Counted from the first letter of the whole stretch, positions 5,932 through 56,177 are shown. The stretch: DNA of 63,760 nt, filler included, from Hausera hauseri (GCA_046269625.1; 11 parts of 11 records of this genome joined end to end with filler, not necessarily neighbours in it), one strand, 5' to 3'. Translations and numbers: made by a program. Notes: generated from the sequence alone by a model not told the origin.

Positions 5932-6075
5932 TATAAACAACGACGGTAAGTATATGATGATTGGGCGATATGGGTGCATAGTTTTCATCATTTTGCACCA
6001 GTTTACCGAATCTATCATGAAAGTTTCGTTCAAATTGTTGTAATGCAAACAAAACCGGCACCATCAACGACAACG

Positions 6076-8156: not shown

Positions 8157-8229
8157 TTTTTGTCGTCATCGTCGATAATAAACAAACTGTGTCATTATTA
8201 TCATTCTCATCATCATCATCATCGAGATC

Positions 8230-9673: not shown

Positions 9674-9684
9674 TTGATAGACAA

Positions 9685-12564: not shown

Positions 12565-15500
12565 TCAACAGATTCCTCGTAATTCCGAAAGAAAGAAATT
12601 TTCCAAACTATCGGCTGACTGATATTCACGCGTTGATTTGTCGTAGTATGTTCGACATGCTGTGAAAATTTTGTGTATGTCCAATTTGAAAGAACCCAAA
12701 TTCGAATATTTCATTCGATCTAATCTGTCTCGGGCAGTCGTCAGATCTGAACCGGAAACCATTAGTCATCACCCGTACGGCAAATATAAAAACATACCCA
12801 TCGGTGATCGAACTACTTTGTAATAACCCGGACTTTTCTTTTGATCGACAGGATACAAAAATGACACGGCGTCTTTATGTTTCTAAACAAAACACAAATT
12901 AGATGAAATATGATAAAGTTGTCCAATTAACCATCATTTTATTTAGCAGATCTGACAGCTTTTTGTGAATATCTGAATCGACTTTCCTTTCGTGATCAAA
13001 TTGAAAAGAACTCGACGATTGTTCTTTTTTCATCTTCTTCTTTCCTTTACCCTTAGAACAACTTGGGCATTTATAACTGCCCTCCATCTGTGTTGCTTCG
13101 TTGTCTGTCAGCCCAACACACGTTGGATGGTACCATTCATCACAATAGTCACAGGCAATATACAATCTGAATGTGAATGGTCAACAACCATAATTTTATC
13201 GGGTAAATAAGGTCACTTTGTAGGATCGTATGTTTTTCTACAACTGCAATAAATCTGATTCAAGTCCTCTTCAATTGGTTCCGAAGATTCATCTGATTTG
13301 ATACCGCTACAATTCTGGCATTTCCACGATTTTATCTGAGAAGCTTTCTTTTCGGTCATTCCAACACAAGAAAAATGAAACCAATTTAAACAAACATCAC
13401 AGCCAATGTAGTTTCTAATTTATGTCAATGTCAAAAGAATATTAGTAAAATGAACGTAAAAACTTACAGAGAACGATTGTATGGAGTTTTACAAATACAG
13501 TACAAACTGGATTCGTCATTACTTTCCGTTAATCGCAGTTTCTTCTCTAATTTTATTTCCTTTCCTGATGGAACTGTTGGTTCATGTGCATTTTTATTGG
13601 ATTTCTTCCGAGTTTTGGATGGAGTTTCTATCGGAGATAGATCTTCTTGGTACAGTTCAGCGTCGGAATTATAAGATTCTTTGTATGATCGCTTTTTCTT
13701 CACACCTTTTCTTGAAGACAATCGGTAGTTGTGCGTTGACGAGTCTGTTTCAGCAGCGTTTGCAATGCGTTCTTCGAAGTTTGCATCCACAGCCGGAGAC
13801 GTACTACCGGTTTCAACTTCCCGTTCGGTAAGTTCATCCGAACTACCTCGGTCTTTTTTCGTTTTCTTAATTTTTTTCGATTCTTTCTTCGCTAATTCGT
13901 TGAACTTCAGATCATCCAGTTTGTTTTGTGCGCGAATTGTTTCAATGTCAACAGTGTTTTGTTTCATTGAAATCATTCGATTGGAAATGGAACGTAATCC
14001 GCTGTCAAGATCGGTACATATATCGTCAAATTTGTTATCTTCACTACCCGTAGATTCTGATCGTCGTGACGATGACGTTCTATTACGACCTCGGCCTCTG
14101 CCGCGTATTTTACCGCGACCACGACCGCCAACTGTAAAAGGTACATCTGAGCGTGACATTTCTCGAATGTCCGTAAGGGGAACCGGAAGCACTGCAGGTA
14201 TATTGCTCGACTGAACAATTATGGGAGTTGACTGCATATCACATTTTGTATTTTCCACAGATGGAACTTTAGGAACCGTAGATTCAACGATCAATTTAGT
14301 TGATTTTATATCGTTTTTCATTACAGTCATATCAGGTAGAATGTTTGTCTGCTTTACAGTCGTAATCGGATTTTCAGGTGGGATCTGTGGCTTTTCGATA
14401 ATTGAAGGCACTGAGTTTTGCACCGTTGTGCTACAAATGATATTGTGCTCAATTTTAACAGGTTCGATTACCGGGTTGACTGGCTTTGGCATTTCGATGT
14501 TTGGAACAATCGAAGCAGCAAACGGCATAACCGGATAAGGAATTATTGGTCGTTGTGGAATCGGTGCGTCGTTTTTCTGGAATACGCGTTTATTGAGAAT
14601 AGAAGAAACCAGAGAATTGTGGCATTTAGGTTGAACAACGAAAGACCTTTTCCATTGAACATGCATTAAGAAATCTCTAATTTCCCAAAGTCCTAGATCT
14701 TCTTCACCCAACCATTCTTCGGAATACTTTTTTTCTGAAAGTCGGACTTCGGCCGTTTCTTCGGCGGTTTTGTAACGTGAGCGACGACTACGTGGTTTTG
14801 GAGTTCTATTAACACCTGGTATAAAATTCGGATCAGAATCTTCAGAATCTCGTTCACCGTCATCTGTGAAATTATCAGTATCAGCATAACGTGCCACTGG
14901 CCGGCGACCTCGACGACTCACCCGTTGTTTATTACCTGAATCCGTAGACTCCTCTGGTAATGTCGATATACAAATAGTAAGTAAATATGTGCATCGAGTA
15001 CAATATTTATCTAGTGGCCTCCATCCAATTAATTTCCGTTCCAACATATCCCCATTGGATAAAGTCTCTTTGAAAATATTTGGAAACTGTACTGAAGAAT
15101 TGACATTGTTTTCCCAATTAAGTAACATGTCATCCCAACGCAACGAATACCATAAAATCTTAAGACTCAAAGCTAAAGATGAAAGTCCAACGGATCCGAA
15201 ACTTTTAGATTTGTCGGTAGATTCCGATTGCGGTTCGGTTGCAAAGAGGTTACTGAATTTTGAGATTTTCTCGTAATTTTTGTTGAGAACTTGTGATACC
15301 CCGTACCTCCAAGTTGTGCAGAAACTGGGTCGGGCCGACGGATATGGCCAGTAGACGTTATTTGGACGTTTCTTTTCAACGTCGAACCCAGGGACTTCAA
15401 TTCTACCGCTTGCAAGAACTAAAAGACGCAAGGATTCCTTGCGAAACAGGAAAATATTTTTAATGTTGGCGCTATCTGTCTCATCTGGCCATCGGAAATG

Positions 15501-18434
15501 ATTAGGTGAAGGTAGAACGTATTCTTCTTCTTCTTTGTTAACCAATGCAGATGGTGATAGACGGAAGAGTTTGTATGGTTCTGATGTCTCGTTGTTAACT
15601 CGACTTATTTGAAACTGAAGTTCGGCAATATGTTTGTCTATCTGGTCGAGTTGCTGGTCACAATCGACAATCTCGTTACAAAGCGAATCAATTTCCTTTC
15701 TTTGCATTACTTCATCAGATGTATCTGTAATCGGAAGACGAGAATCGTTATTATGAGTTACTTTGCTTATCGTACGTCGGCCTTGGATTGGTGTTGTCTG
15801 TCGAGGTGTGCTGATCGGGTTATTTTGAAACGTACTCGTTATACCTGTTGTTACTGCACTACCGAATGTACCGACCAATGGTTTGTTTTGCTGCTGCGAA
15901 TCATGAGGTAACAACTTCTTGTACTGGGGCATTGTCTGGCTGCTGCTGATGCGAATTGGCACTTGGATGCCATTGTTATTTATATTACAAATGAGTCCCT
16001 GTTGGCTCAGTGGAACAACCTGGCCGTTGGACAATGTGGATGAACCACCCTGAACAATATTATTCAGAAGCAAAATGGGCTGGCCGTTAGGACTGATCTT
16101 TCGGATTTGCGGCGGGCCCGGCGCTGATTTACCAGCCAATTGAACGTTACCGGTATTGACTAACCGGATGAACGGACTCGTGGGAAATCGTACAAGTTGT
16201 GCTTGAGAAAAACACGGAGTACCAACAACTTGTGTTGGACGAGTGTTGATCATTAATCTATTCGGCTGGTTGCCACTGTTGTTTTGAGAAATATTTACTA
16301 AACACAGTCGATTAACGTTTGCTGAACTGCTGTTTACAAAAAGAGGTTGCTTCATGTTCACGTTTTGCAGAGTTGTCGTATCGGCGAAATTTGTCGAATT
16401 CATTGATGCTAGATCGGTAATGGTTGGATTTGATTTCACTGGAGTATTGAGTTCGTCATTGTCGTCAGCCCCATCAAATTGTGACACGTACGGTATGTTT
16501 TCATTTTGAAATCGCATACGCTTTTCACCAAAGTTGGACATTTCATAATTTGGAAATGGCCGTTTCTTATTGGCTAGCTGACCTCGCCATGATAGCAATT
16601 TACTATGGTCCTTTGAAAGGACATCAAGTCGACTTTCCAAGTCCTGTTTCTTGAGTGTCAATTCGTGTCGTTTGTTTGTAGATTCCGACAGATTTTTCTG
16701 ACACGAATCCAAGTCGTATTCTTTTACCGATCGTTGATATTCATTGACACGCAACGCCAAAATTGAATTGATAGAATGCGTAATATACGCTCCGTTTTTG
16801 TAAAACGTATCATTATCAATTTCACTGGAAATATCGATAACATCGAAAGAGGTTGATGCGAAATTTGGCGTACTTTTAATGGGCAGTTTAATAGCTGGGT
16901 GGAGATAAGGACAATAATTAATGTTCCCTTCGTCAGATATTTGTTGACGTGTTGAACAAAGAGTTGCGTATTTCCCCAAAGTCACTGTCGGTGAAATCCA
17001 ACACCATCCATTTCCGCCCATTCGTCTATATTCCTCGCCTTTTGTTTTCCAAATCATATGTCTCAAAAGTCCCGGGTTTCTCGTTTTAACAACTTCTCCT
17101 TCGGGTTTCTGAGTTTTCCGTTCTTGAATTTTAACACGTTTCTCTTCTTCTCTCTCTGCTGCCGTTATACGTTCCAGATAAAGATACCCCAATAAACCAG
17201 TCCAGCTTTTCTTAAAAGCACACGGCCGAATAGCCGTTTCAAACGTTGAGAGGAATTCAGCTAACGACGAAGCATTACGGACCCGTTGAATGTTGATTAA
17301 CCAATTCTTTCTCTCTGATTTCCAAGCCGGGCACATAAAAGATGAGAACATTTTCGTTTCAATGCTTTCCAAACTCAATCGTAAACATTGGAGCATATTT
17401 AACGGACCACCAAGAATATCATTTTCCGGCCTATTTATTGATAAATTAGAATTCGGCCAAACAGCCCGATTAGTTGGTTGACTGACGAACCAACTAAAAT
17501 CAATGCACTCATTAAACGAAAACTTATTGCCCAAAACCCGTTTCCTGTCTTTATCTTCCTGATGTTGAACTTTAGACAGAGCATCGAATTCCGTTGAATA
17601 TAAATTTTTATAAAACCTCCACATACCCTCATCACCAAGTCGATAAATGATTTTGTCTGATTCTTCAATTAAATTATAATTAACGATATCGGCAACTTCT
17701 TCCAATTGATTAGCACGAGTTTTTGCCGAGAGTCTGACGCGAATTGTAACACCATCAACACTGCGTACCAACAACCCTTCTTGATCCTCAACAACACCGA
17801 CGGGTAATCCGTTTAATGTTTTCAAATCATAGCTCTTTTCCACGATTGTATCAATATTGTCTGGTTCTTTGACAATCAACCCGTCGGCTGCATCTTCATT
17901 CTGTACATCAGTTTCATCACCAACGACATATTTTGCTATCTCTTCAAACAAAGCACTTTCAATTGGTTTCATATTTCCAATTGGAACGGATTTCCGAAAT
18001 TTACTCAATCCATGTTTCGTTAGAGTTTTAGTAACATTCATGGACTTCTTTATTTCTTCCACCAAACTATCGAATACATCACACAATTCTGATTCCCAAT
18101 CCCGAGACAATTGACTGCGCAGTTGTTCAACAGCATTCCACGAACTGTAATAAAGAACGCGTTCATATTCCGGTTTGAAGTTTGACTTGTTTTTCTGTAA
18201 AATAAATTCCGTCAAATTATCAATGTTATCGTTACGTGGTTCGATGATTAATCTTCGGGCAAGGAACCAATAGGTATTTCCAAATCGATCATAACCCAAC
18301 GGAGTTTTCTTGTGTTCCACCAGAGCTTTTTCTCCATCTAAATTACTTTCGTACAATCCGACAACTTTATGTTTAATGCAAATAGGACAGTTCCATTGAG
18401 ATTGCGGTACTGATGGTATACCCAAACAATCCAA
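12565..18434 (-). CDS. BPTF: BPTF/NURF301-like nucleosome-remodelling factor subunit (WHIM region, tandem C-terminal PHD fingers, bromodomain)
   Basis: 4.97-kb exon with PLGYDRFGNTYWFLARR, IWKTKGEEYRRMGGNGWCW, WPYPSARPSF..TW and LWEI. Four GT-AG introns at 13467-13415, 13216-13167, 12931-12883 and 12797-12747 give YCICKTPY..YIGCD.C..WFH..C, YCSCRKTY..YIACD.C.EWYH..C and a bromodomain (FLYPVD...PGYYKVVRSPMDL). Stop at 12565. Confidence 0.93.
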
Positions 18435-18920
18435 ATGCTAAACAGCTGAACAAGATTCACAGCAAAGAACTTCGCCTCTCGTCTGACTTATTCGACATAA
18501 GTCCTCGTGAGTTGTGAAAATTTCTCGAGATATTTCCGCTCTCAGTGATGGACCGTAGACGAATAAATCCAATGAAAATTCGAATACGTTAGTTCGATCG
18601 TCAAGACAAGCGAATAGGTACGATTCTGGAATGGTTATTATCTCTCCAGTTGTATCGATTGAGGTGATGTATTGTTGCCACATTTCCGGCCGTGTCATAA
18701 CATCCATCAAGAAATACGTTAAATTAACGCAATCCTTCTGATCCAATGAACACAATGACGTGTTCGCATATTCATCTTCACGAATTAGCAATTTTAATCA
18801 AGACATGAATTTCTGATAATAACATGGAATTTTCATTGGAAAGCATTGAATATATGAAATCTTCAATTTTAAATGGTGACAAATGTAAAATTTTATAATA
18901 TTGTATCAGTTTCGTACATC
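18435..18920 (-). pseudogene. BPTF: Degenerate BPTF N-terminal segment (DDT domain and first half of PHD1)
   Basis: ILHLSPFKIEDF..LLSEIHV, LIREDE, DQKDCVN..MDVMTRPE, LCCESCSAV*HLDC. Two frameshifts and a TAG stop at 18438. Confidence 0.8.
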
Positions 18921-20283: not shown

Positions 20284-22165
20284 CATAGAATACGTACATT
20301 TGTTAAAATCAATGATCCGTCTTCGAAATGTCTCCAAAAGATCAATTAAAGTGGATTAAAATACAGTAAACTACAAACTAAAACAGTGGAGGTACAGCAA
20401 CGTGCAATAACAAGTAGAATTTTTACTCATTCAATAGGTGGCACGACGCAAAGGCAGATTTATATCGTGGTGTATCAATATTTTACGCTGCACCAATGAC
20501 TTTCGGTACATAAAGTTATTCACCAAATCTGAAGATAGATCCTCTCTCCTTAGAGTCCGCATGAATTGAACTGAATCAATAACCAAATTGTAAACATTTC
20601 TTAGACGGCACTTGTTCATTTTACACCATAGTTAGTTTTGACTGTCAATGAGAGCTATATCACTGCACGCCTATTTAATCATACACTAATTTCACATATA
20701 ATTTCAATCTCACTTATTTAATCACGTAAATTTCATGTACATAGTAAAGGGCACACCATCGCATATNNNNNNNNNNNNNNNNNNNNNNNNNNNNNNNNNN
20801 NNNNNNNNNNTTAATTAATTAANNNNNNNNNNNNNNNNNNNNNNNNNNNNNNNNNNNNNNNNNNNNTTCGATTAACTGCTAAATTTGAATGTGTGGCATC
20901 GATGCCCTGCAGCTCCGACGATTCCAGTCGCAGCATTACGAAAGCTCAGTTTCACTTCCATTCCTTTTGGATCTGATCCTCTGCCATCCATACAAGCATT
21001 TACAATTCTGATGTACGATACGGCCTGAAACAAAAGTACTACATTATACGCAGCCTTCGGTGCTCATACCACAGAGCACCTCAGGAAGGTTGTTTTCCAA
21101 GATTACGGTTTCTTTCTCTGTGCTTTTTAGTCAAAAGTGAAATATTTTATATTTCGTTTATAGTACAACATAGATGGAATAGTAAAATCCTGAGACACTT
21201 ACATAAAAGATTTCTTTAGTCTGGACGATTTCGTCTGAGCACTTTGTTTGTGACTGAACCAGTTTCACGTCTTAAAGTTTAGACAAATTGCTTCCAAATA
21301 CTGAATATTTCCATATTCTGTTCAAATGTTTCATTTCATTGGTACATTTTTCGAATGTCGAAGTCTATATAATGATGGAAATTTAATTTTGCCAGTCAGA
21401 TTTTCTAGTACAACATAGCTTATAGAGAATTAAAATGATCTAAGCTGCAACTGCTAATCAAAAAATTTTAATTTTACATTATTCGAGATAATTATCTTGT
21501 CAGTAACTATCATTTATTGATTTTATTTTAGTTTGTAAATTACATTATCAAATTAATTCCGAATGTCTGTCTATTCTTGAAACGTACTGAGATTATTAAA
21601 TATAGCTTTTCATAAGAATTAGAAAATTTTGAATCTTCATCATGTTCAGTCTCCGTCAATTTAAAGGGAGCGACTTATCTTTCAACATTTGAATTAAATT
21701 GGCAAGAGAACGAGAGATAGAGAGCACATCCTTATCTATCCTATCTTATTGGTAATGTTTAGGGGCAATGCACACGTGCGTCTCTTTACTATGGTTTAGT
21801 TGGTCGTACGTTAGTGATTTGGGACGCAATCCAACAGAAGGTTGGGCCACTACCAAATTAATTTCGAACTTGATTTAATAAGCCAACATGTTTCAAAGTA
21901 TATGTTGACCACAAATAAAAAATAATCATATGGAAATTAACCAAATGAAATATGCCAGTATTTATTTTTAGTCAACAGTATAAGTAGTCATTGTAAATAA
22001 ACTCATTCAATAACCACTACTGTGTTAGTATTTGAAGGTGGGCCCTATCCAACACCCAACTATAGCAATGATGAATTACACTCAAATTTATTTAAGATTA
22101 TGCAGGTAAGTTCTAACGTTCTCATTAGAATGTTTGCACTAATTTTATTATGCCTGTACTGCGTG

Positions 22166-22796
22166 TGATTCCTGTGCAAGGTTAAATAGGTCTCGTCTTA
22201 TCTATAGAGTTTAACCTGGATTTTATATCTTAGTGTGAGTCAAGTCCCTCTTAAAGAGCGACGAAAAATTATAAGCCAGTTTAAAATACAAGTTTATTAA
22301 CAATAATAACAAATACCAAGACGAATCGAATTTCCCAATGGGTCGACTTCCAAATCTGATTATCGGGCTGCTCACCGAGAACGTTACGAATCAAGTTTTT
22401 CAAAATGATCTGGCGCTTCCAGTCGCTCGATCAATATTCAAGTTCCTTTCGCTTTTCACTATTTACACACTTCAATACTTCTCGTTCCAACTGATTTTTC
22501 ACTGCCTTATATAGTTGGCAATTCGTGGGAGAATCGATTATGATTAATTTTCAATATTTCTTCTGGCAATTTATAAATAATTCTTTTCAATTTCTCTTGA
22601 TTATTCAACATTGTGGGATAATTTGTAATCGTTTTCTGAACAATTTATGTGCATATTTGTGAGCGTAAGCCGATTAGCCCATTCAATTTAATAATAATTT
22701 GTACTTAAATTCTGATTAATATTCTAAATATTCGTTTTCGGTTTCACTTTTATTTACATTTACACATTTTGTTACCATCTACGGCCTTTTATATCA
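22166..22796 (-). repeat. 3' LTR of Gypsy copy A
   Basis: Starts TGATAT immediately after the PPT. Contains TATATAAG (about 22512-22505) and AATAAA (about 22298-22293) on the minus strand. The candidate end ...GAATCA at 22166 gives TGAT/ATCA termini; the end position is tentative. Confidence 0.7.
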
Positions 22797-22808
22797 TTTC
22801 TCCTCCCT
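22797..22808 (-). other. Polypurine tract
   Basis: AGGGAGGAGAAA directly abutting the TG of the LTR. Confidence 0.75.
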
Positions 22809-22887
22809 GAACGGCACTCTCGGATGTGCCCATTGCGTCAGAAAAGGTGCCGCGTCTTAAGGGGTTCATTCGTCCGCGTAAGTCCGC

Positions 22888-23304
22888 TTACGAATCTGAT
22901 TCATCGCGTGGCGATCGCATTTCTAATCGGTATGCTGCAGTAGGCCTCGGAGGAAGTATCTCCATTATTTTATTATTCTCTGCGTTAGAGAAATATCGTA
23001 ATCTCGTAGATTTGACCCGACATACTGGGCAGGTCGTCTTCCCGTTTTCCAGGGTCCATATTTCTAAGCAACACCGACATTTATTGGTGCAATCCTTATT
23101 ATCTAGTACTACGAATCCTTGATAGAGGCTTGCGTCGCAAACGGAGCATTCTTCCTTTTCGCCTCTATCTAGATCTACAATATCTTGATTGACTTCAATT
23201 CGTTCGAACACAAGTCCTTGTTTATCCTGGTATAGATAACCATATAATTGTTTTTGCTTGGGATCTATGGAACTCTTTTTGGGGTCATCCGATACGGTTA
23301 CCAA
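22888..23304 (-). CDS. RING-finger protein or domain inside the Gypsy element
   Basis: CSVC-x15-CTNKCRCCLEIW-x7-TCPVCR is a RING-type spacing with the conserved W and CPxCR. The His ligand position is altered. Confidence 0.75.
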   Translation of the reverse strand: MVTVSDDPKKSSIDPKQKQLYGYLYQDKQGLVFERIEVNQDIVDLDRGEKEECSVCDASLYQGFVVLDNKDCTNKCRCCLEIWTLENGKTTCPVCRVKSTRLRYFSNAENNKIMEILPPRPTAAYRLEMRSPRDESDS

Positions 23305-23309
23305 CGTTC

Positions 23310-25306
23310 ACTCGATGATTTCTTGTTGGTCTAAATTTAATATTCCTGTCTTGTATATTTTCTTCAACTGAACACGAACTTGGGTGTATACCGGGATAGT
23401 TAGTCGTTTGGTACCGTTTCTCGATTGAAATATTGTGCTAAATATTTACCAATTTGTGCATCTTCTCGGACAACCATTTCCGCTTACGATTCTCCTCGGG
23501 ACAGTGGAGACGTAAAATATTGCTTCTTTAATCTTTCTTTTACTATAATATTCGGCCATGACGAGTATTTTGGTGTATTCCTTAATTTGACCGAACTCCG
23601 TTACTACTATGGGGGTCAGTTCTTTCCAATTCTTTCTGTGAACATTTACCTCGGTTCTCGGTGATTCATAACGAGAAATTTTCATTCCCTGTTCGTTGGG
23701 CTTTTCGACTTTCTGCCGTTTCGGTTTAACCTTCTGGCTTGTTGCTTCCTCTTGAGTATTTGGTGCAAGCTTGCTGCTAGGTAGGTTTATCTCCGGTATG
23801 ATTGTTACTGGTTTTATTTTTCTTCCTGCTTATATAATCACAAAGGGAAAGTTTCGTCTTCTGTATCTTCTGGGGTTTTCTGGTTCTAATTTTCGTAAGT
23901 TTAGCTTCTACTCTTCTTTTCTGGTGGGAAATTTGATTATGTACGGTTTTAGACTTATCATAATTATTAGGGATTTCGTCGTTCCATTTGACCTTGACTA
24001 GTCGATTGGGTTTCTTGGTTATTTCTGCTTGGTTTTATCTGTTTCTGTTTGGGCAATTGGACTGGCTTGGTTTGAACAGTGATTTGAAAATTGTTACCTC
24101 TTTGTGGACCTATATGCCTGTGTACAGGGTATTCACTGAATCCTCTGCGAAATTTCTGCATCAAATTGTTGGGATTGATGTCAGACATCAAATTCTACAC
24201 GGGATTTCTTGGCTTCCATTCATGATCCCATCGTAGAGAAACGTAAATATCTCTTACGAGTTTTGTTCTCCGACTTGCTGTGAGTATCTTATGGAAACGG
24301 AAATATTCGCAATTTATGGCTTCTAACATCATTTTGAATTGGCATTCTCGTGATGCCAGAGGAAGCAAGCATCCTCTTTTTTCCATTAGAGTGCTCTCTG
24401 TTCGACTTACGACTGTCGGATTGCGACTCAACTCGCGGATTTCAGCTATATATTCTTGTCTGATTCCTAGCCTTTTCATCTCATGCACTGTATATCCTGC
24501 TACAATGAAATCATACAAGCAATGGCTTATGTCTTGTATTTCAAGGAAATCCTTACCCTTTTCGAGTTGCAACTTTGTAATTCCTGTAACATCAGGAAAG
24601 GTATCCTTCACTTTAGTTCTGGGCGCTATTATCTTGTTTATTACTTTCTCCGTTTACATTTCTGATGGAAACTGGTGTATACTATCCATCTTCTTTCTCT
24701 CCATAGTTCACTGCTATGATCCTAATATTTCTGCCGTGTGGAACTAGTCTAAACGATTTTCCATGCTGTTCTATTTTGTCTTCCGAAGGCTTCTGCAGGC
24801 ATAAGATTTGTGGTAAGGATTTCATTATTTGAGTACGTAATGTCAGTTCAAACATGATTTTTGTTGGAATTTCTGCTATTCTAAACTCTAAAGCATAATC
24901 CATGAGGTTAGAGCAGCGTAGCTCATAGGTACTAAATTTCCATTGTTGGCCCTTTGGAGTACTCCAGGGCTGTCCTACGATACTGTACTGGATCTCGCCA
25001 TCAGCGACATGTATGCACATTTGCTGATGTGTCGGTTGATATGGAATCAAATCTCTCAACAGGTATGCTTGTGCATCCTTTGAGTTTCTCATTTTGTATA
25101 AACGAACTAGTCGGTTTTCTTCTAAGCCTCACTTTAATTCATAAACTCTCATGGTCAATTTCCACATAGGTTTTATTTTTCAGGTTTTCTCCAATTTGAC
25201 GATATAGACTTTTCGACGGGAGATTTAAGACTGTCACGTGCTGTTGCAAGAAATCATCTATCTTGTGTCTGGGACCGTGTACTGGAATCTTCGCTTTCTC
25301 GGCCAT
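23310..25306 (-). pseudogene. Unknown accessory ORF(s) of Gypsy copy A, broken by stops and frameshifts
   Basis: Chain of co-oriented ORF fragments (25306-25139, 25092-24682, 24611-24195, 24191-23967, 23685-23446) starting MAEKAK after a splice-acceptor-like site. Confidence 0.55.
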
Positions 25307-25411
25307 ATTTACTCTTCTGAAATAGAAATAAAGATCAATCCTAAGGCAGATCATCGTCTTGAAACAAAACATTTTCTCTGTCTGATGATAGGATAACCAG
25401 ATCTGTAGTTG

Positions 25412-26730
25412 TCAGGTTATTCTATCATAAAGTTCGTCTTGGTAACCTTTCACCCGTTTACCTCCTTGCTGATTTTTGCAGTCCTTATTACAATTTTTGG
25501 AAACTAGAAAAATCGTCTCGGTTATCATGGCGAGAACGAAGGTTGAGAAACTAAATATAGATATTTTCGTTAAGTTATTCGTTTTGGTAGAATTTTCCGT
25601 TGTAATAGAAATTTGGATGATAGTATCCTTATTTTGCATTACTCGAATTTCGTTCGGGGTTCGTCACGTAAGGGTTTTATGTTTTCTACCTTCTGCGGTA
25701 ACTTGAATTATATAGTCGTATTGCGGTCGTAGCGATTTACACTCAGTGTTCTGACTATCTTTTCTTAACATCACAATTCGGCTAGTATACAGGGTACGAC
25801 ATTCAATTTTGATCTCGTAATTTAACGTTTCATCGACGTAAAATAGTATTCTGTTATGGCCTACCAAAAATTTAACAGGTATATTTTCTAGTTCTCTCTC
25901 GGGTAGTTTACTTGAAGTGACAACATCTGTAGAAATAGTTGCGCTTGAAATAGATGGTTTTCTCGTAGTTATTGGAAGGGAAATTTTCCATACTCGAATT
26001 TTTGGATAATATTTTCTTAAGTACTTTGTTCGTTTGGATAATTATTATATAGATCGAAATTCACTTTGTGCTCATGGCCCAGCGGTATTTTGCAACACGG
26101 GTTTGGTTGGTTCTGCGCGATATAACAGTATTTCACTAAGGGAGTTGATTTCTTTATCGGTATAAATTGAATGGAAATTTGTCTGTCGTCTGGTAGTTCT
26201 ACTTTGGTTTTTATCTGTATACATTGGTTTTTGATGTCTTTGAAGATTCTGATTACGTTATGATCTAAAATTCATCTTAGTGGATCGGTACTTTGAATTA
26301 TATCGTTCGTATTAGTTTGACTTATCTCATTCTGTTTAAGCATATCTATACTGAGCTTCGTAAGTATATGGACTTGAATTCCACGTATATTATAGTAGGA
26401 CATTTGCAATTCGTATTTGTATTTTCGTCAAAAATCTAACCTTCAGCATTTCCGTTGAGCTCCGTGAGGGAAATAACAGGTTCTTACTGCAGCGTTGGCT
26501 TTGTCTATGAACAATATTCGAAATTTTACATGGTCTCTAACGGGTTTGCTTGCTTTAAACCAAGCGCAGGGTTTTCCCAATACATATCGTAAACTTAGTG
26601 ATTTTAAATTTGGTATATCTCTTCGTTTCTCTGCATGTTGTTCTTCGGACAATCCGGAAATATTTTTCGGCATATATGATGCAATTAGAGAGCGCTACTA
26701 TTTGCACGTATGATATAGGCCTAGTGCTTA
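25412..26730 (-). pseudogene. Env-position type-I membrane protein with FN3-like domains (copy A)
   Basis: Hydrophobic signal, two Cys-rich repeats, S/T linker, KSLRPQYDYIIQVT, TM ISIFSFSTFVLAMITETIFLVS and tail ELYDRIT. Homologous along its length to 32061-33395. Confidence 0.75.
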
Positions 26731-26779
26731 TTGAGGACGTTTTCTTTTTTATGCTACGATTTTGATTTTCGTTAATTGA

Positions 26780-27665
26780 GCATAGATTATAACGCTTATT
26801 CGGCGTAATTTCCGTTCTAATAACTCTGTATTGATACGAATTTGCCGTTTTTGTTAATATAAACTGTAGTCGTCGTGGTTCGGATAACTTCGTAAGGTCC
26901 TCTTCCGGTACAAATAAGTTTCAAGGATGTCTTTCTTAGCTACTGAATAATGTGCATAAACCCAACTTGCTTGTTCTAGATCATGCGGTTTATCTTTCTT
27001 GTCATACTGTCTTTTAAATTGCTCGTGGTATCCTTGAGATACTTCTTTTGCTACTTCCAAACACTTTTGCAGTCTTGTCTGTAGCACTTCGGCAAAATTC
27101 TGTTCTAAGTCTTCTGGATTTGCTGTATACGGTATCATTCCTAGATCCGTCAGTAATAGGGCTTTTCTGCCACATATCATAAAGAATGGAGTAAATCCAA
27201 TCGAAGGGTGTGGTGTAGTGTTAATAGCAAATTGTGTACCTTCTAAAAATTCATTCCAATCTTTTTGGTCCTTCACGACTATTGTTGATAAGATTCGTAT
27301 GACTGTTGCGTTCATGCGTTCGACCATTCCGTTACATTGAGGGCGATAAGCTGTCGTGGTTAATCGTTCAATTTCAAATATTCTGGTAATTTTATCGAAT
27401 AATTCACTTGTAAAATTTCTTCCTCTATCTGTCAAGATTTGTTCGAGGGCCCATATCTACAGACAATTTTTCTTACTACGGCTTCTGCCAGAGTTTCAGC
27501 TTTTTGATCCATTAATGCCATTAGTTCGACAAAATGAGTTAATCGGTTTATACATGTCAGGATGTATTTATTACTTCTATGAATTGTAGGCAAGAGTCCT
27601 ACAAAATTCATGGACATCGCTTGCATCGGTCTGTCCGGTACATTTATCGGTTTGAGTTCGGCAAT
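26780..27665 (-). pseudogene. Gypsy integrase (copy A)
   Basis: SM(N)FVG.LP, TDRGRNFTS, TTAYRPQCNGMVERMN, W...L....FAINT, GFTPF and a GPY region. Confidence 0.93.
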
Positions 27666-27875: not shown

Positions 27876-28789
27876 ATAACAGTCTTGACTTTTCTTTCCT
27901 TTTTGGTTCAGCTCTTGTGTATTTTTTTTAATGAGCTTGTGAGGGGAATCTGAGAAACCAAAGCAAACTATACCTAACAAAATACGAGGCAGCCCCCGGA
28001 AAGTAACAACAATAACCAGTACAGAATAACCAGGGCTAGACTGAAAGAATCAGGCGCAACATTTCTAATGGACAGACGGTGCACGAATAAGACGAGGGCA
28101 CACAATCATTTATACGTTAAATGTCTGAATGTTGGAGGTAATTACGTGGAGAAATAGCCTGACGTGTTTAGAGACACTATAACAAATTTTGTTCTGGAAT
28201 ACGTACTGGTTAATATCTTTATTACAGAACGGGCACTACTTTCCGAAAGGTCCTGGTATCACCTTATACAATCTTACAAGAAGGAAGTCTGCATTACAAT
28301 GAACTATACAAGGTAGAAGAGGACGATGAACATTGCAACAGAAATGTCAGCTAGGGCTCTGATAGCTTGGGGAAAAGCAAGAAAGACGCACAGTGGTCTC
28401 GTCTCAGGTAACTTTCTGTGTCAAAGGTAGGGAGAAAGAAAGAGTGAGACACAACCACACGTTCTGTTTTTTTCATCACAATTTAGGCGACTGTATTACT
28501 ATATCTTCAAGTTGACAACGACTGCCTGATGAGAGAGCATTACATGCAGTCATTCTAAAGGATTCACACAGCATATTGGTGAAGTTTGATCAGCATAAGC
28601 TTCGGCAAAAAAAAAAAACGGCTTGTACTTCTTGATCACCGCCGTGTTGAAAGTGCTACGTAGATATACAGCCCAGATCGTGATGGGGTATGAGAAAGCG
28701 GTGAGATATCAGTCAGATGCTCGTACAGGAGATTGATGTCTCTGAGACATTAGAACAGAATGTGGAGGAGTAATTGACGAGTGTGTATG

Positions 28790-31700
28790 CGAGAATAATG
28801 GACATCAGTATACGCAGGAGTAACAGAAGGAAATGGCATGTGGGGAGAGAACGGAAATGCATTCTGGCGGGAAAAAAACCATGAACTCACAATCACAGAA
28901 TTCCTGTGATAAATAGTAGGCACGAAAATAGAGGAATCAGTGCCACGGGCGTTAAAGAATGAAAAAGGGAAAGAAGTAAAAAATAAATAAAAGGATGCTA
29001 GAGCGTACTTTACCAAAGTTTCTGAGGAGATAAGTGAACAGGAAGAAATGGTAGCTCTGAGAACAGTGGAAGTATGGCTAAAGACTAAGAATAAAATGAA
29101 AAAAGCATTAATGCTGTTTGACGATGTTAGTACCAAGAGCTTCGTCGATTCAAAACTATGTGAAGAACTAGGTGTCGATAAGAAAACAGAAAGGTTGACG
29201 ATAAATGTCTTCGGAGGGAAACAGACTGAGATGTCTTTTGACAGGGTCAAAATGGTGTTGATAAATATTGACCGATCGATAGAAGTCCAATTTAAGGCGA
29301 TAGCTATGAAAAATCCAACCGGAAAGATGAGGGCAGTGAACTGGTCCACAGAAAAACAAAATAGTTCCATATAAAGCATTTAAGGTTCCCCACATTGTCA
29401 AACAACTTAGAGGTGAATGGTATTGTTGGGGCGAACTTTACAGAGTTACACAAGTCAATCAAAGAGGTATATAGCAAAAGCGATGCGCCGGTAGCGCGAT
29501 TAACTCCGTTAGGCTGGACCTGTGGAGGACAAATAAAAAAGGAAAGGAAAAACATAAATAGTAATTTCATAAGGACTTTTTGGACAAGGACAGAGAAAAT
29601 TCAAAATAATCTGAGCCACTTGTGGGAGGTCGAGTTTAACATGAGCGCAAACGAGTTTGAGAGGAATAAACAAAATGAAGAGGCAATAAAACGGATATTA
29701 AAAGAAACGACTCATGAAGAAAATAGGTACTGCGTGCCGTTACCATGGAAGGGAGTAATACAACCTGAAATGGAAAACAATAAATGGATGGCAGAAAAAC
29801 GATTGAAAACTCACAAGAATAAGTTAGATAAAGATGAGGAGGCAAAAGCGACCTATGAGAAGGTAATAGAAGCACATACGAAATAAAAATATATCAGAGT
29901 GGTAAAAGAACAAGAGGAACAAGAGACGGCTTGGCTGTTTTCACATTTTCCGGCCATGAAAGTTGATAGGCAAACCACAAAATGCCGGATAGTTTTCGAT
30001 GCTGCTTTAAAATATCGGGGAAAGTGTCAGAACGATTTACTGAATCCTGGACCGAAATTACAATTGGACATTATAGACATTATATTAAGGACGAGAAAAC
30101 GGCCATGGGTTGTCATATGTGACATCCAGAAAATGTTCCTGCAGAAAGAGGTGAAACAAGAAGACAAGAAATACTTAAGGTTTCTTTGGTATAAGGAAAG
30201 GAAACTCAAGACATACGAGTTTAATCGGCTAGTATTTGGGTTGAACGCCTCTCCATGTCTGGCACAATTAGTATCAAGACATAACGCTGAGAGATTCAAA
30301 GACAAATTCCCCAGAGCCGTAGAAACAATAGAACACTCTAATTACATGAACTATTGCATCGACTCAATCGGCAGTAAGAATGAAGCCGTATCGTTATACA
30401 GCGAACTAAATGAGATTTGAAAAAAGGCTGGGATGAAACCACACAAATGGGTGTCAAACTGTAATGAATTGATAAAGATAATACATACCGCGAGCCAAGC
30501 CAAGGAATTCCACATACTGGAAAAAACTGATATTGTTACCAGGACGTTGGGGATGAAGTGGAAGATCGAAGAGGATACATTCAAGTTTGGAAACCGTAGT
30601 AAACAAGAAATAGAGATAACTAAAAAAATTCTATTAAGCGCATTGGCGAAAATGTTCGACCCGTTAGGTTTTCCCAGTTGTTATATGTTGTTGGGTAATG
30701 TGTTTCTACAACAGCTGTGGATGATAAAAGTAGATTTGGATGAAAAAATCCCAAACAAATTGAGTGAGAAAATAAGAGAATAGATAAAAGGTATGGAAAA
30801 TAATAAAGGTGTCAAGGTATCTGTATTTTAAGGAAGGTACGGACAGTCAGGTACATATTTTCTGCGACGCATTAAGGTGGGATTATGGGGTGGTCGCTTA
30901 TTTAAGATCGACAGTGGAAGGGAAGATTAAAGTGGTAATCATATGTTTGAAAGGTAAGGTGACACCGGTGAGGTTAGTCGTCATACCAAGACTGGAATTG
31001 ATGGCAAAATGTATTGGAGTTAAGTTAGAGAGAAAAGCGAGAAGAACTCTGGACAACAACAAGGAAGAGATACAGTACTGGATGGACAGAATGAACGTAT
31101 TATATTGGACAAAAGGCTGTAACAAATATTACAAAACGTTCATTGCGAACACAGTAGGATTTATACAAGAAGAAACGACTGGGAAACGATAGAACTATGT
31201 GAAGTCGGAACATAACCAAGCGAACTATCTTTCTTGGGGACTATACGTCGACGAACTACGAGACAAAATAGAATGGTGGAATGTTCCAGAGTTCCTCAGA
31301 AAACTAAAAGTTCAATGGCCAGTTCAACCCAGAAAACTAATCAAACCAAAGAATGAGAAGAGAAAGGATGCAATTATATTGACGCCTTTGGGAGAGCGAG
31401 TCACAGGAGGAGAGTATCAGAATCATGATAATGAGGCAAATGTCGAACAATGTGCCTGGTCTTGTTAGGAAGAAGTGATTAAACAGAAAGAGAAATTCTT
31501 CTGAGAGAAGGAAATAAATTAATTGAAGTACAATTAAGAAGGAAAGCAAAACTAGAAATAATCAAAGAGTACCAAGAAAAGGAGTTTTGCACAGAAATAA
31601 TGGATTTGAGGTCTAAGAAGGAGATTAGCTACAAGAGCGTTATTGCAAAATCTAACCCCGTACTAAATGACGAGGGGATATTGAGATCGTGTAGTCGGTT

Positions 31701-31924
31701 GATAACGACATCTTGGTTAAATTGGGAACAAAAATACCCTATAATATTGTCCTCGAAGAATACTGTAACGAAGCTAATTATTGAGGACACATATTTAAAT
31801 TTACGACATGCGGCGAGAATCAACCACAAAGTTGCGGAATTAAGTAATAGGTATTGGTTCCCCAAGATGAAGAAGCTCGTCAAAGCTTACCAAAACTATT
31901 GTATAATCTGTAGGAGGTCAAATG
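28790..31924 (+). mobile_element. BEL/Pao LTR retrotransposon pol, degenerate
   Basis: Protease-like LFDD.STKSFV, TPLGW, RYCVPLPWK. RT TTKCRIVFDA, CDIQKMFLQ, FGLNASP. FDPLG, FCDA, IPRLEL (Pao RNase H/A17). Integrase zinc-binding RH..INH..R.W....C..C. Confidence 0.93.
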
Positions 31925-32060
31925 NNNNNNNNNNNNNNNNNNNNNNNNNNNNNNNNNNNNNNNNNNNNTTAATTAATTAANNNNNNNNNNNNNNNNNNNN
32001 NNNNNNNNNNNNNNNNNNNNNNNNCTCTGTCTGATGATAGGATAACCCGATCTGTAGTTG

Positions 32061-33395
32061 TCAAGTTATGCTATCATAAAGTCCGTCTCGGTGCCCTTTT
32101 ACCCATTTATCTCCCTTCCGATTTTTACAGCGCTTATTACAATTTTTTGAAACTAAAAAAATTATCGCCGTTAATATGACAAGAACACAAATTGACAAAC
32201 TTAATATAGCTATTGTTGGTAAACTGCTTGACTCAATAGAACTTTTTGTGGTAAACGCATTTTGTGTACCAAGATCTTTATATCTCATTACTTTGATTTC
32301 GTTGCCAAGAGTTCGTACTGTAAAAGTTTTCGGTTTTTTACCTTTCTCGGTGATTCGGATTACATAATCGTACTGCGGTCGTAATGACTTGCGTTGCGTT
32401 TCCTGATTATTCTTTCTCAGGACCACAACTTGGTTGGTGTGCAGGGTGCGACATTCAATTTTGACGTCTTGAGTTGACATTTCTTCAGTGTAAAGTAGAA
32501 TTTTATCACTTTTTGACAAAATCTTAACTGGTATGTTCCATAGTTCTTTCTCCAGCATTTCATTCGAAGTGACGATCGCAGTAGTGCAACTTGTACTTAG
32601 AACTTTAGATGGGTTTCTCGTAGTGGTTTGGAAAGGAAGCTTTTATATTTCGTTTTTCGGACGATATCCCCATAAATAAGTACTTCGTTCTTCGGGGTAC
32701 GTATTATACAAGTCGAGTTGCAAATGATACTCCTGTCCTAGTTGCAGTACACAGAACACACTAGGTCGTCGTTTGGACAAATAACAATACTTCGGAATAA
32801 AAACCGAAGAATTCAATGGTATAAATTGGACAGAAATTGGTCTGTCTCCAGGCAACTCTATTTTTGTCTCAATTGGAAAACACTGGTCCTTTAACTTTTT
32901 GTAGATCCCAATAATGTTGTAATCTAACAGCCGTTTAAGTGGGTCAGTACTTTAGATTATCTCATCCGTCTTGGCTCGATTCGTGTCATTTCTTTGAGGC
33001 ATCCTTATTAGAAGTTCAGTAAGTATATAGGCTTGGGCTCCCGGTTGGTTATAATAGAACATTTAAAGTCTGTATCGGTAGGTTTGTCCGAAATTCAAGG
33101 CACAACATTTCTTATGAACTCCGTACGGGAATTCGTATGTTCTCATCGTGTATCTAGTTACAAATATTATTTGAAATTTCACATGGTCCTGAATAGGTTC
33201 ACTTGCTTCGAACCACGCACATGGCTTACTCCAATCCATATCGTATACTCTAAGTGACTGTAAATTTTCAATATTCCTCCGTCTTGCCACATACTGTAAT
33301 TTTTCGGTTTGAGTTATCGACTTCGCCTTCGGCATATATGAAGCGATTAACGATAAGGCGAGGATTATCTGCACGTATGATACTGGTTTGGTCAC
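32061..33395 (-). pseudogene. Env-position type-I membrane protein with FN3-like domains (copy B)
   Basis: Signal VQIILALSLIASY, domain 1 KPCAWF..KKCCALNFGQTY, domain 2 KYCY..FCVLQLGQEY, domain 3 SLRPQYDYVIRIT, TM IAILSLSICVLVILTAIIFLVS and tail GLYDSIT. Confidence 0.78.
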
Positions 33396-33419
33396 TATCG
33401 TCGACGTTTCTTTTCTTTA

Positions 33420-35900
33420 TCAGTTTTGCTTGATCGCAAATTGGGACGTTTAACGGGTCTTATCTCCGTTTTAACTACTCTTTTAATCGATATGACCTCT
33501 TCCTTGCCGTTTTTATTTATATAAACCGTGGTCGGCGTAGCTTTGTAACTTCATAAGGTCCTCTACCTGTCCTAGTAAGCTGAAGAGACGTTCCTTTCTT
33601 TGCTACTGGATAGTATACGTAAAACCAGTTTCCGGGTTCCAGATCGTGTGGTTTAGCCTTCTTATCATATTGCTTCTTGAAGTGTTCCTGGTATTCTTTA
33701 GATAGTTCCTTGGCTATCTCCCAACACTTTTGTAATCTCAATTGCAGTACCTCGACAAAATTTTGCTCTAAATCTTCCGTTCTTGTTGTGTATGGGATCA
33801 GTCCTAAATCTGTAGGCAATACAGCTTCTCTTCCGTACATTATAAAAATGGAGTGAATCCTGTTGCCGAATGTGGAGTAATATTAATGGCAAACTGTGTA
33901 CCTTCTAAGAACTCATCACAATCTTTCTGGTCTTTGCGACTACTGTCGATAAGATTCGTATAACTGTCGCGTTCATTCGTTCGACCATTCCATTACATTG
34001 GGGATAATAAGTTGTGGTAGTTAATCGTTCAATCTCGAAAAGTTTTGGTAATTTTGTCGAACAATTCGCTCGTAAAGTTTCTTCCTCGGTCTGTCAAGAT
34101 TTGTTCGGGTGGCCCGTACCTGCAAATGATTTTCCGGACTACTGCTTCTGCCAAGGTCTCGGCCCTTTGGTCTAATAACGCTATAAGCTCGACGAAATGA
34201 GTCAATCGGCCTACACCGGTCAAAATGTATTTGTTATTCTTGTGGGTCGTAGGCAATGGTCCTACAATATCCATAGACATTGCTTGCATTGGTCTATCGG
34301 TCACGTCAATAAGCTTAAGCTCGGCGATGTAGCCTTTAACTTTTCTTTGTTTGGTTGCGCATATTTCGGAAGCATTCACACAATTCCTTACGTCAATATA
34401 AATGCTCGGTCAATAGTACTTATTTAATATCTTTTCCAATGTCTTTTTCCACGACATGTGTCCGGCTAAGTATGATTCATGTTCAGCCATGAGGGCTTCC
34501 GTTCATAATCCCTTCGGTATGACGACTAATTTTCGTTTTTTTTTGTTCACAGTATAACACATTTTCGTTGTTAAAATCTCCGGCGACGCAGTATTTCTGA
34601 CCATATCGTCCTAGGTGTTTCCGTAACTGATGACCTTTGGGTGTTACGTTGGTATCAACAAATTCGATAATCTGTTGTATAACCCTGTCTTTTCTCTGTT
34701 CGACAGCAATCTTTAATGCCTAATGTGAGAGTCCGTTGTCTTTCTACTAAATCTTCAAGGTGTGCTTTCCTCATTAATGTAACTGCGCTTGTTTTGGTTT
34801 TAAGTCTCGATAGTACGTCAGCATCGACATGCTTATTTCCGGGTTTGTATTGGAATTCAATATTGTAACGTGAAATTTCCTCGATCCATCTGTTAAGTCT
34901 ACAAGTTGGATTATTTGCACTACCCTTCAAAGTCGTAACTGCTTTATGATCAGTAACGATTACGCTCTTCTGTCCGTATACGTACTCATTAAAATGTCGC
35001 AAGGCTTCTTTTACGGCTAATGTTTCTAACTCTGTAACGGAATAGTTCTTCTCTACTTTCTTTAGAGAACGTCCTCCGTAAGCAATCAGGTGTTTTAGAT
35101 CCTCGTCGTCTCGTTTCTGAGCTAATTCATATTCGATACGTTCCTTACTGGCGTCTGTTTTGATTATAAACGGTAGGTTGAAGTCAGGATATCTTAAAAC
35201 ATGTTCACTAGTGAGAATTTTCTTCATTTCATTAAAAGCCTTTTGTTCGACATCGGTCCATCTCCATTTGATCCCCTTTTTTAGCATACCATATAAAGGT
35301 GCGTTTATCTTCGCATTGTCCGGTACGTAAGTAGCACAATATCCACACAATTCCAACCAGTGCCTCAATTCTTTTTGATCCTGGGGTTCCATACAATCCG
35401 ATATCTTACTTAATAGTGATTTATCCGGCTTCGACCCTCCTTCTCCGACTATATGTTTAAGGTACGATACAGCATTTTGGGCCCATTTACACTTCTTGGG
35501 ATTCAGTTTCAATCCCGCTTGCTCCAATCTCATGAGTGTACCTTCAATGTCTTTTAAGTGATCCTCTTCCGTTTTCGACGCAATCATAACGTTGTCCAAG
35601 TAGCCGAATGCGTGTTCCAGTCCCATTAGCATCTTATTCATCATGAGAGTAAAGATGGCTGGTCCGATAGTGATTCAAAATGGCATAACATTAAATTCGT
35701 ATATACCGTCGTGTCTTAAATGCCGTTTTTCAACGATATTCCTCCTCTATCTCTACTTGCCAATATCCAGATTGCAAATCGAGCGTGGTGAACCATTTAG
35801 CTCCCGAAAGTCTATCTAAGGCTTCCTTTAGCGACAGTAACGAAAAAGATTCCTTCATCATAAGTATATTTAATGCTCGATAGTTGATACAAAATCGGTG
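33420..35900 (-). pseudogene. Gypsy pol (RT-RNase H-integrase), copy B
   Basis: RFCINYRALN, LDLQSGYWQV, YLD(N), LKLNPKKC, TDAS, NYSVTELE, TDHKA, YKPG..H..AD.LSR, HH/CC zinc region, SMDIVGPLP, TDRGRNF and GPY. Confidence 0.95.
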
Positions 35901-36078
35901 TGTGAGGAGGAATTCAGGAAGCCAATATAAAGTGAGGAAATTCATAAGAGGAGGAAAATAAGGTTCATTTACTGATTGNNNNNNNNNNNNNNNNNNNNNN
36001 NNNNNNNNNNNNNNNNNNNNNNTTAATTAATTAANNNNNNNNNNNNNNNNNNNNNNNNNNNNNNNNNNNNNNNNNNNN

Positions 36079-37153
36079 TCATTGACCCATTTTTCGACTT
36101 CTTCATAAATATTGAAATGCGGCTCAGTAAGTGCGTATCCCATCGATGAAAACAAATGGTAATCAGAAGGAACCAAGTCTGGTAAATACGGCGGACGGGG
36201 TAGCAACTCCCAGCTAAGAGCTTTCAACGTATCTTGAACTAGTTTTGATTTGTGTGGCGTTGCGTTATCATGGCGCAAAATTACCGTACTATATCTTCTA
36301 GCCCGTTCTGGTTGTTTTTCTACTAACGCATGGTTCAAAATGATTTAACGGTTTCAACAGATTTTAGGAGCTCATAGTACAGTACACCTTTCTGATTCCA
36401 CCAAACACAGAACATTATCCTCTTTTCGAATCGATTTGGTTTGGCGCTTGATGTGAATGGTTCACTTGGACTTACCCATGATTTTTTTTCCTTTAGGATT
36501 CTCAAAATAAATCCACTTCTCGTCCCCAGTAACAATGCAATGCAGATAACTCTTTCTTTCGTGTCTTTGAAGCAAAATGTCGTAGGTGATTTTTTTCGGG
36601 TTTCTGTCTTTCAGTAAATTCATGTAGCACCAATTTTCCACAAATTTTGAATCTTTTCCATAGCTTTTAAACGTATAGAAATCGTTTACTGTTGATCATT
36701 TAAAGCTTCTGCCATTTGCTTTTTACTTAAAATGTCATTTTCACCCAATATTGCTTGCAATTCGGTTTCTTCAAACTTTTTCGGTGATCTTCAACGTTTT
36801 TCATTTCTCACACCACAATGGCGACTTTTGCATCGTTGAAATCACTCTTTGCATGTTGGGTCTGCTATACCATGTTTATCATAAGCTTCGACAAGTATTT
36901 GATGCGCTTCAGCTGCACTTTTCGTCAAAAGAAAATAAAAACATAATGAGATCCGCAAATCGCAATTTTCTGCACCAAAATTTGACATTTTCCACGCGAT
37001 AAAAACTATGTTCTTGTTTAACACTTGGAATATTGTATAATAAATATTGTTGACAGATGTCAAAGCAATAAAAAATTTAACATCTGCAATCGGTAACACT
37101 GTACTGCACATACAGCCATCTATGTGCAAACGATGATTTAATATTCATAAACC
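36079..37153 (-). mobile_element. Mariner transposon (Mos1-like), degenerate, 3' end cut by gap
   Basis: MSNF..KSAAEAHQILVEAY, KKSWV..P...KPNRF, VWWNQKGVLYYELLK, HDNATPH and PYLPDLVPSDYHLF. Confidence 0.92.
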
Positions 37154-37155
37154 TA

Positions 37156-41752: not shown

Positions 41753-41874
41753 ATGTTTAGATTATTTGAATTGGNNNNNNNNNNNNNNNNNNNNNNNNNN
41801 NNNNNNNNNNNNNNNNNNTTAATTAATTAANNNNNNNNNNNNNNNNNNNNNNNNNNNNNNNNNNNNNNNNNNNN

Positions 41875-56129: not shown

Positions 56130-56177
56130 ATTGGATTGCTTGAAATCAGTAATCGGTAATGAATTGAAAATTACAAA

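Follow-up and report, generated by a model that had tools for sequence, protein, structure and literature searches.

A Ty3/Gypsy-type long terminal repeat (LTR) retrotransposon of Hausera hauseri (GCA_046269625.1) carries, behind its pol gene and a membrane-protein open reading frame (ORF2), one accessory gene, ORF3 (22789..25306, ~839 codons), whose predicted product joins a DnaQ-like exonuclease domain stripped of its catalytic residues to a C-terminal RING finger. The window, i.e. the entire stretch of DNA analyzed (63,760 nucleotides), consists of contigs strung together by N-linkers, and the element lies on the minus strand of the contig at 20867-27665 (a 6.8-kb stretch) in the order integrase tail, broken ORF2, acceptor-like site, broken ORF3, polypurine tract and LTR; all features of the element given below are on that strand. 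Our joint reading, on which our judgement is evenly balanced, is that of a pseudo-nuclease-RING gene that is probably spliced and likely encodes an RNA-binding ubiquitin ligase for the element. The original prediction, made from the sequence alone, had described a splice-acceptor-led frame ending in a RING finger; the pseudo-exonuclease, the extension of the frame into the LTR and a readthrough-type context at the upstream ORF2 stop are new beyond that reading.

ORF3 is a single gene of a multi-copy element

The co-oriented ORF fragments of about 2.4 kb that the original prediction placed after the acceptor, and regarded as possibly a single ORF of ~800 amino acids (aa), indeed fill 25306-22891. 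In the window copy they are interrupted by four frameshifts (near 25140, 24648, 23996 and 23800-23830) and six in-frame stops (at 25131, 24684, 24197, 23448, 23310 and 22890). A HMMER search with the RING-frame piece against 1.84 billion representatives yielded three matches, headed by the protein P0005 (E 1.4e-59); the remaining ones were a plant RING protein and a long protein whose alignment was confined to short stretches. P0005 is a natural intact relative of 870 aa, a single-member record on a 16-kb ENA contig, and its residues 56-870 align to 25267-22792 in five pieces, with 38-46% identity outside a linker region. Because the fragments are colinear with the single intact ORF of P0005, they represent one gene, and the suspected single ORF thus holds at slightly more than its predicted length. 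ORF3 runs across the polypurine tract (AGGGAGGAGAAA, 22797..22808), which its last codons overlap, into the LTR. The stop at 22890-22888 is private to the window copy, as a different base stands there in 45 sister contigs, which make up 29,716 of the 29,739 in summed depth, and beyond it the frame continues across the tract until a stop shortly past the LTR start (22791-22789); the C-termini are likewise alike (AVQGGEML in P0005, AVQGGEMI in the window frame). A separate nested insertion, which the original prediction had held up as a potential refutation, is ruled out by the colinearity of ORF3 with P0005 and by its end within the polypurine tract and LTR.

The sister contigs derive from one public run, X1, of unknown kind, and were aligned at a likeness of at least 80%. 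X1 may be the window's own sample and so gives no independent support, and the summed depth cannot be read as a copy number. A total of 5356 X1 contigs align to the 6.8-kb stretch and cover every depth bin of ORF3, therefore pointing to a multi-copy family that includes ORF3; the absence of the region from sister copies, also considered at the outset, is contradicted by the cover of all bins across 22888-25334. Among the best-supported 40 of ~1190 variants, two of the 21 in the ORF3 RING frame are synonymous, and none of six in the integrase; these classes were not used as a selection test because the variants are mostly private changes of the window copy.

That ORF3 might instead be a captured host gene, or a passenger with no role in the element, appears most improbable. 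Hosts commonly have RING and DEDDh domains, and only one intact relative was found, but the gene has no intron, its end overlaps the polypurine tract and LTR start as in the P0005 C-terminus, many sister contigs cover it, two sequences at ~45% identity keep the entire layout, and no named host protein is among the three HMMER matches. Searches of viral contigs, JGI metagenome contigs and phages recovered no relative. Word-indexed searches found nothing with P0002 and the sister ORF2 piece (against longer proteins only) and only P0005 itself with P0005; they are insensitive, since P0005, a 40% relative of P0002, was missed.

A DEDDh-type domain that has lost its catalytic residues

The ORF3 protein is made up, in order, of a conserved N-terminal region (24727..25267; P0005 ~56-243, 46% identity), the pseudo-nuclease (24216..24726; P0005 ~245-415), a variable basic linker of low hydrophobicity (23572..24100), a conserved pre-RING region (23152..23571; P0005 ~604-740) and the RING finger (23020..23148). 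The N-terminal region gave no convincing family match in Pfam, NCBIfam or PHROGs, and the pre-RING region, delimited by alignment to P0005, none either. The linker, recognized by its composition, has the lowest sister cover and contains clusters resembling nuclear localization signals (NLSs; KKRRK at P0005 547) by pattern reading alone.

Several profile searches converge on residues ~245-360 of P0005, within the domain at ~245-415. In a sequence search of the PDB, DnaQ (8h18, E 1.5e-4) and PolC (2p1j, E 4.4e-4) were the sole matches at E<=10, and PHROG 192 matched the domain with E 1.1e-4. Five of the six NCBIfam matches fall on residues 262-359 (E 0.004-0.085), four of them named PolC/DnaQ (E 0.004-0.011), and Pfam RNase_T was recovered at E 0.012, below its cut-off. 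For residues 50-460, the ESM Atlas returned RNase_T clusters (0.87-0.89) and arenavirus nucleoprotein within a range of 0.84-0.89, which we take as a lead only. We built a profile from 92 DEDDh domains of bacteria and phages (gathered by two routes, 12 and 80), which gave P0005 a score of 16.6 bits, the best of 1000 shuffles reaching 3.3 bits and the reversed protein -1.1; the hhalign alignment of P0005 with this profile spans 156 columns (probability 69%, E 4.3e-5; 0.3% for the reversed control). By pattern, the catalytic D, E, D, H and D are present in 92 of the 92 references, and non-catalytic residues take their places in both P0005 and the window: motifs I and II have non-acidic residues, and motif III lacks the H and D. 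A search with the A2 profile included one exonuclease (E 0.67) among the best 60 matches listed, and BLASTP against Escherichia coli DnaQ gave nothing.

An AlphaFold model of the domain, built with 41 DEDDh rows in its alignment, attained a mean predicted local distance difference test score (pLDDT) of 67.8, with 70-89 over the first 100 residues. Compared with known structures over the whole domain, it matched ISG20 (Z 15.2, root-mean-square deviation 3.2, 159 residues aligned), the EXO-like domain of Exuperantia (Z 10.1) and Maelstrom (Z 8-9). The model is compatible with a DEDDh fold and is not independent proof of it.

A number of observations count against the assignment. The fold match is biased by the DEDDh rows in the alignment; all exonuclease family scores lie below curated cut-offs and cover chiefly the first half of the domain; the motif III alignment is of low confidence; an earlier, shallower hhalign comparison failed (0.1%); the domain piece of the window copy scores only 4.0 bits against the DEDDh profile; and P0005 is the only intact relative known, as a protein record. 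On balance, we assign ORF3 residues ~245-415, judged by sequence, to the DEDDh-type fold, and as a pseudo-nuclease because the catalytic residues are lost in both known sequences.

The RING finger

The RING finger is degenerate in the window copy and canonical in P0005 (residues 747-790). The HMMER check suggested with the original prediction placed the window copy below the cut-off (Pfam zf-RING_2, E 0.0055, 17.4 bits against 27.3) and P0005 above it (zf-C3HC4, 30.8 bits against 21), with two Pfam cut-offs passed. P0005 has all eight zinc ligands of a C3HC4 finger at canonical spacing, and E3 ligases head its PDB matches; in the window finger the His ligand is absent and one residue is missing between ligands, and the PDB matches of this piece are mainly RING domains with some PHD fingers. 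The ESM Atlas gave no usable match to the RING piece, and the RING-frame piece, folded as a single sequence, reached a pLDDT of 30.5, too low to be of use. The finger had been placed ~80 bp before the polypurine tract: the RING itself stands, but it lies ~210 nt away, and what lies 80 nt before the tract is the fragment's stop at 22890-22888.

An acceptor-like site ahead of ORF3

The minus strand reads TCTTTATTTCTATTTCAG followed directly by AAGAGTAAATATGGCC, with the AG at 25318-25317 and the ATG at 25306 exactly as originally described. The site (25317..25338) consists of a branch-point-like yUnAy (A at 25335), a pyrimidine tract and a TTTCAG acceptor. The branch-point consensus is yUnAy, and here its A lies 18 nt before the end of the AG; the tract, with 13 of 16 pyrimidines, is the highest among the 364 AG sites on the element's minus strand at 22800-27660. 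We surveyed 25270-25460 in 399 sister contigs, where 32 variant positions are listed, absence from the list not being proof of identity. TTTCAG (25322-25317), position 25337 and the ATG are not among the listed variants, and the common variants at 25336 and 25334 preserve yUnAy. The branch-point-like site, tract and TTTCAG are thus conserved among the sister contigs, the cover of which is thin over the pyrimidine tract (summed depth ~300). We consider it somewhat probable that predicted splicing at 25317 yields the ORF3 message.

Certain features of P0005 and the sister contigs speak against splicing at this site. P0005 lacks a Met matching the ATG at 25306 (its Mets are at 1, 55 and 117), and 54 open codons precede Met55 in its frame, extending through the acceptor-like stretch (chance ~0.02). 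Moreover, its first 23 residues resemble the linker frame of the window copy, here the stretch between its ORF2 stop and the ATG at 25306 (p ~0.02, post hoc; other frames 0.3-0.6). This open, linker-like frame across the acceptor-like stretch favors translation through the site. In addition, most of the sister depth (by the variant at 25308) has a textbook splice-donor hexamer at 25307-25312, which sits 4 nt past the acceptor and right before the ATG; P0005 has K-V-S there.

A start of ORF3 at the in-frame ATG at 25372 would give a protein of ~861 aa with a short hydrophobic N-terminus, arising from an internal promoter, termination-reinitiation or a hairpin-aided internal entry site. By eye, Met1 of P0005 stands 22 residues before the match of the Met at 25306, an equal distance, no variant is listed at 25372-25370, and promoter activity has been described at the Tca2 gag-pol junction (PMC2194720). 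On the other hand, Met1 of P0005 is merely the first ATG taken by a gene caller and such a start leaves the acceptor signals unexplained, making it very unlikely in our estimate.

The host element and its envelope-position gene

The window copy starts at the contig edge within pol, at the integrase, and misses gag, reverse transcriptase (RT) and 5' LTR. Its broken integrase core and C-terminal part (26857..27659; Pfam rve, E 5e-4) is 69% identical in DNA to a sister copy on another contig (32025-34298). This sister copy (32025..35978, minus strand) encodes RT, RNase H, integrase, ORF2 and a hairpin, and ends at its contig edge just short of the acceptor. Its pol has the Pfam order RVT_1, RT_RNaseH, rve, which is the Ty3/Gypsy order, and its best PDB match is Ty3 Gag-Pol (E 1.4e-36). 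The 3' LTR (22023..22796) starts with TG at 22796 and has a TATA-like signal at 22513 and AATAAA at 22298; its end is approximate (TAACA at 22027-22023), with sister cover dropping from 25,050 to 8 below ~22005. By pol order, Ty3-like RT and the polypurine tract with a TG-starting 3' LTR, the element is classified as a Ty3/Gypsy (Metaviridae) LTR retrotransposon.

ORF2 (25412..26790, start approximate; 32064-33416 in the sister copy, minus strand) is a broken gene in the envelope position that ends with a TGA at 25414-25412. Its layout is that of a membrane protein (hydropathy 1.96 in the window copy, 3.1 in the sister copy), with an N-terminal hydrophobic stretch, an ectodomain, a C-terminal transmembrane helix and a short basic tail. 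It is under purifying selection between the two window copies, with proportions of differing nonsynonymous sites (pN) of 0.22-0.29 against synonymous ones (pS) of 0.51-0.73 in three blocks; pS in the integrase is 0.76-0.88. Searches of Pfam, NCBIfam, PHROGs and PDB sequences gave no convincing match, and none to F-type or gB-type envelopes. We describe ORF2 as a conserved type I membrane protein without family assignment in sequence searches. By eye, its ectodomain has three repeats with a strand pattern recalling fibronectin type III, a likeness that sequence searches do not support.

A conserved hairpin and a readthrough context at the ORF2 stop

Around the ORF2 stop lies a predicted RNA hairpin of 44 nt (25385..25428), 67 nt upstream of the acceptor. 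It is significantly stable in both copies (z -2.68 in the window copy, -3.50 in the sister copy); two of the seven folds tried were significant, and both span 25428-25385. Between the two copies 41 of its 44 nt are identical, as are 38 of the 39 nt starting at the ORF2 stop. All four hairpin variants with a share of at least 10% fall at unpaired places (12 of the 44), and the loose ends of diverged copies begin at the hairpin edges (25428/25429 and 25385). Two-sided covariation was not seen among the sister variants, the hairpin has no Rfam match, and no tRNA was found. A scan with the hairpin pattern gave no viral and five metagenome matches, which were dismissed as chance as they had no 3' arm or convincing element homology.

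Inside the hairpin, 95 nt upstream of the acceptor and in frame with ORF3, the stop is embedded in UGA-CAA-CUA (25406..25414), a readthrough context of the CAR-YYA type of tobacco mosaic virus (TMV), also termed type I (PMC2194720, PMC13517186). This raises the possibility, which we regard as rather unlikely, that readthrough of the ORF2 UGA, alone or alongside splicing, yields a ~1330-aa membrane-anchored E3, in which the pseudo-nuclease and RING would lie on the cytosolic side of an extended membrane protein. From the ORF2 stop to the ATG at 25306 there are 35 open codons in the ORF3 frame (chance 0.066), and P0005 is open and weakly similar over the same stretch. The CAR-YYA context follows only 16 of the 6530 stop triplets in the window; all its 9 nt are the same in both copies, and the sole variable place, 25408, is always a pyrimidine, so that the one common variant keeps the context. 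None of the 32 variants listed in the survey is an indel and none of the 30 in the linker gains a stop. Furthermore, CAR-YYA is reported to act at all three stops in plants and yeast without downstream structure (PMC13517186), and an in-frame stop splits pol and env of SIRE1 (PMC2194720).

Other data argue against readthrough. Among the linker variants, 10 of 30 are synonymous where 7.6 would be expected, a difference that is not significant (P 0.21), and neither is the lack of stop gains (P 0.18). The hairpin spans the stop and would be unwound, its downstream part alone being non-significant (z -0.29 to 1.13), and the conserved loop could be a protein-binding site merely resembling CAR-YYA. 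In a yeast reporter, no readthrough occurred at a Tca2 stop accompanied by predicted structure (PMC2194720), and a complete branch point, tract and AG are conserved as well. Judged by eye, the loose ends of diverged copies hint once at an open linker frame and once at the contrary, and neither hint was counted.

Possible functions of ORF3

Under the reading of ORF3 as a spliced pseudo-nuclease-RING gene, its message would be made as a spliced subgenomic RNA, and the protein, given its basic clusters, would be nuclear. By analogy with the PXL domain of PML, Maelstrom and EXD1, the pseudo-nuclease may bind the element's own intron-containing RNA, and the RING, assuming that it has E3 activity, may ubiquitinate host silencing or nuclear-retention factors. 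The hairpin would be intronic for the ORF3 message and retained in genomic and ORF2 RNAs, a layout like that of the Rev/RRE (Rev response element) or CERV-type switch; the hairpin as the binding target of ORF3 is our guess.

ORF3 could conversely be chiefly a Rev/CERV-like export or packaging adaptor, or a nuclease decoy for element RNA or cDNA, with the RING as a scaffold or dimerization module rather than a degradation ligase. The pseudo-nuclease, the basic clusters and the conserved hairpin in the predicted intron would suit such a role, and CERV likewise has an enzyme-like G domain devoid of critical residues (PMC10309623). However, the P0005 RING is canonical with E3 ligases as its best PDB matches, and we hold this alternative to be unlikely. 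A wider scenario, which we put forward as decidedly speculative and quite improbable, is that of a four-gene, complex-retrovirus-like Gypsy in which a hairpin-acceptor hub makes ORF3 in two forms: splicing would give a soluble nuclear form that acts like Rev and, as an RNA-guided E3, counters host silencing, and TMV-type UGA readthrough of the envelope-position protein would give a membrane-anchored one.

To our knowledge, few counter-defense or export proteins are known for animal LTR retrotransposons, and most extra ORFs have no assigned domains. The anatomy of ORF3 is readable, as an RNA-binding-type pseudo-nuclease with a RING, and in P0005 it has an intact natural form available for expression and assays. 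Thus, whether Gypsy elements encode ubiquitin ligases against host silencing becomes directly testable.

Other features of the window

Beyond the element, the window has a host BPTF/NURF301-like gene (13464-18797, minus strand) with a 1657-codon open frame, a Pfam WSD match and a name given by eye. Also by eye, we noted a decayed Polinton/Maverick-like piece with integrase- and capsid-like frames (5509-10871, plus strand), a decayed BEL/Pao-like pol (28750-31980, plus strand), Mariner-like transposase pieces (2603-3613 and 36027-38210), a vigilin-like KH piece (50897-51574, minus strand) and an intronless, apparently decayed O-GlcNAcase-like frame (56163-57281, plus strand). A complex satellite with periods of 47-48 and 117 nt occupies 41871-48900, and an interspersed repeat of ~90% identity is common to two contigs (49008-49586 and 57367-58094).

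Comparison with known systems

LTR elements often carry extra 3' ORFs (PMC7264820), and their ORF3s typically come from spliced messages (PMC5408684). Our literature search, which did not extend to Repbase, supplements or subscription papers that may describe such elements, turned up no LTR retrotransposon whose ORF carries a RING or a DEDDh-RING combination. DnaQ-like ORF3s are known from rotifer LTR elements and are of the DEDDy type with intact catalytic residues (PMC5408684, PMC6338049). Those of the bdelloid Vesta and Juno resemble the present gene: they are likewise additional ORFs, downstream of pol in animal LTR elements, with a DnaQ-like exonuclease domain, and spliced expression is assumed for them (PMC5408684). 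In contrast, they are RNase D-like with catalytic residues intact (PMC5408684), whereas the domain described here is DEDDh/PolC-like and its catalytic residues are gone; the RING and the upstream membrane-protein ORF further set our element apart, and the text of PMC5408684 mentions no RING.

The functional model for ORF3 is CERV of the Caenorhabditis elegans element Cer1, a spliced protein required for genomic RNA export, which is likewise a multi-domain Ty3/Gypsy accessory protein made from a spliced mRNA with a TTTCAG acceptor, and has an NLS, a pseudo-enzyme domain and a Cys-rich module (PMC10309623). Unlike ORF3, it lies in the 5' part and shares Gag sequence, its pseudo-enzyme is G-protein-like (an exonuclease goes unmentioned in the paper), and its Cys-rich module is a possible C4 finger, not a RING finger (PMC10309623). 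Errantiviruses share the membrane-protein ORF between pol and the 3' LTR, but ORF2 has no detected F-type or gB-type likeness and a further ORF follows it (PMC13524379); this survey of env-carrying elements mentions neither RING nor readthrough. The soybean element SIRE1 shares an in-frame stop with CAR-YYA between two retroelement ORFs (PMC2194720, PMC13517186); stop suppression is described for the SIRE1/TMV type (PMC2194720), while in the window element readthrough is predicted from the sequence context. If the two-form scenario were true, an animal retroelement would possess a type I readthrough signal.

The same two domain types also occur together in a host protein. PML isoform I unites a RING with a DEDDh domain that is catalytically dead (PMC10123124, PMC13659232), and its pseudo-exonuclease, PXL, binds RNA (PMC13659232). 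The RING of PML is N-terminal, within an RBCC module, and that of ORF3 C-terminal, the order thus being reversed (PMC10123124); among the 19 Pfam matches of P0005 at E<=1 there is no B-box family. Moreover, PML is a host restriction factor against retrotransposons, whereas ORF3 is carried by the element (PMC10123124, PMC13659232). Should ORF3 indeed be made in the two forms, it would be an element-encoded mirror image of this host restriction factor.

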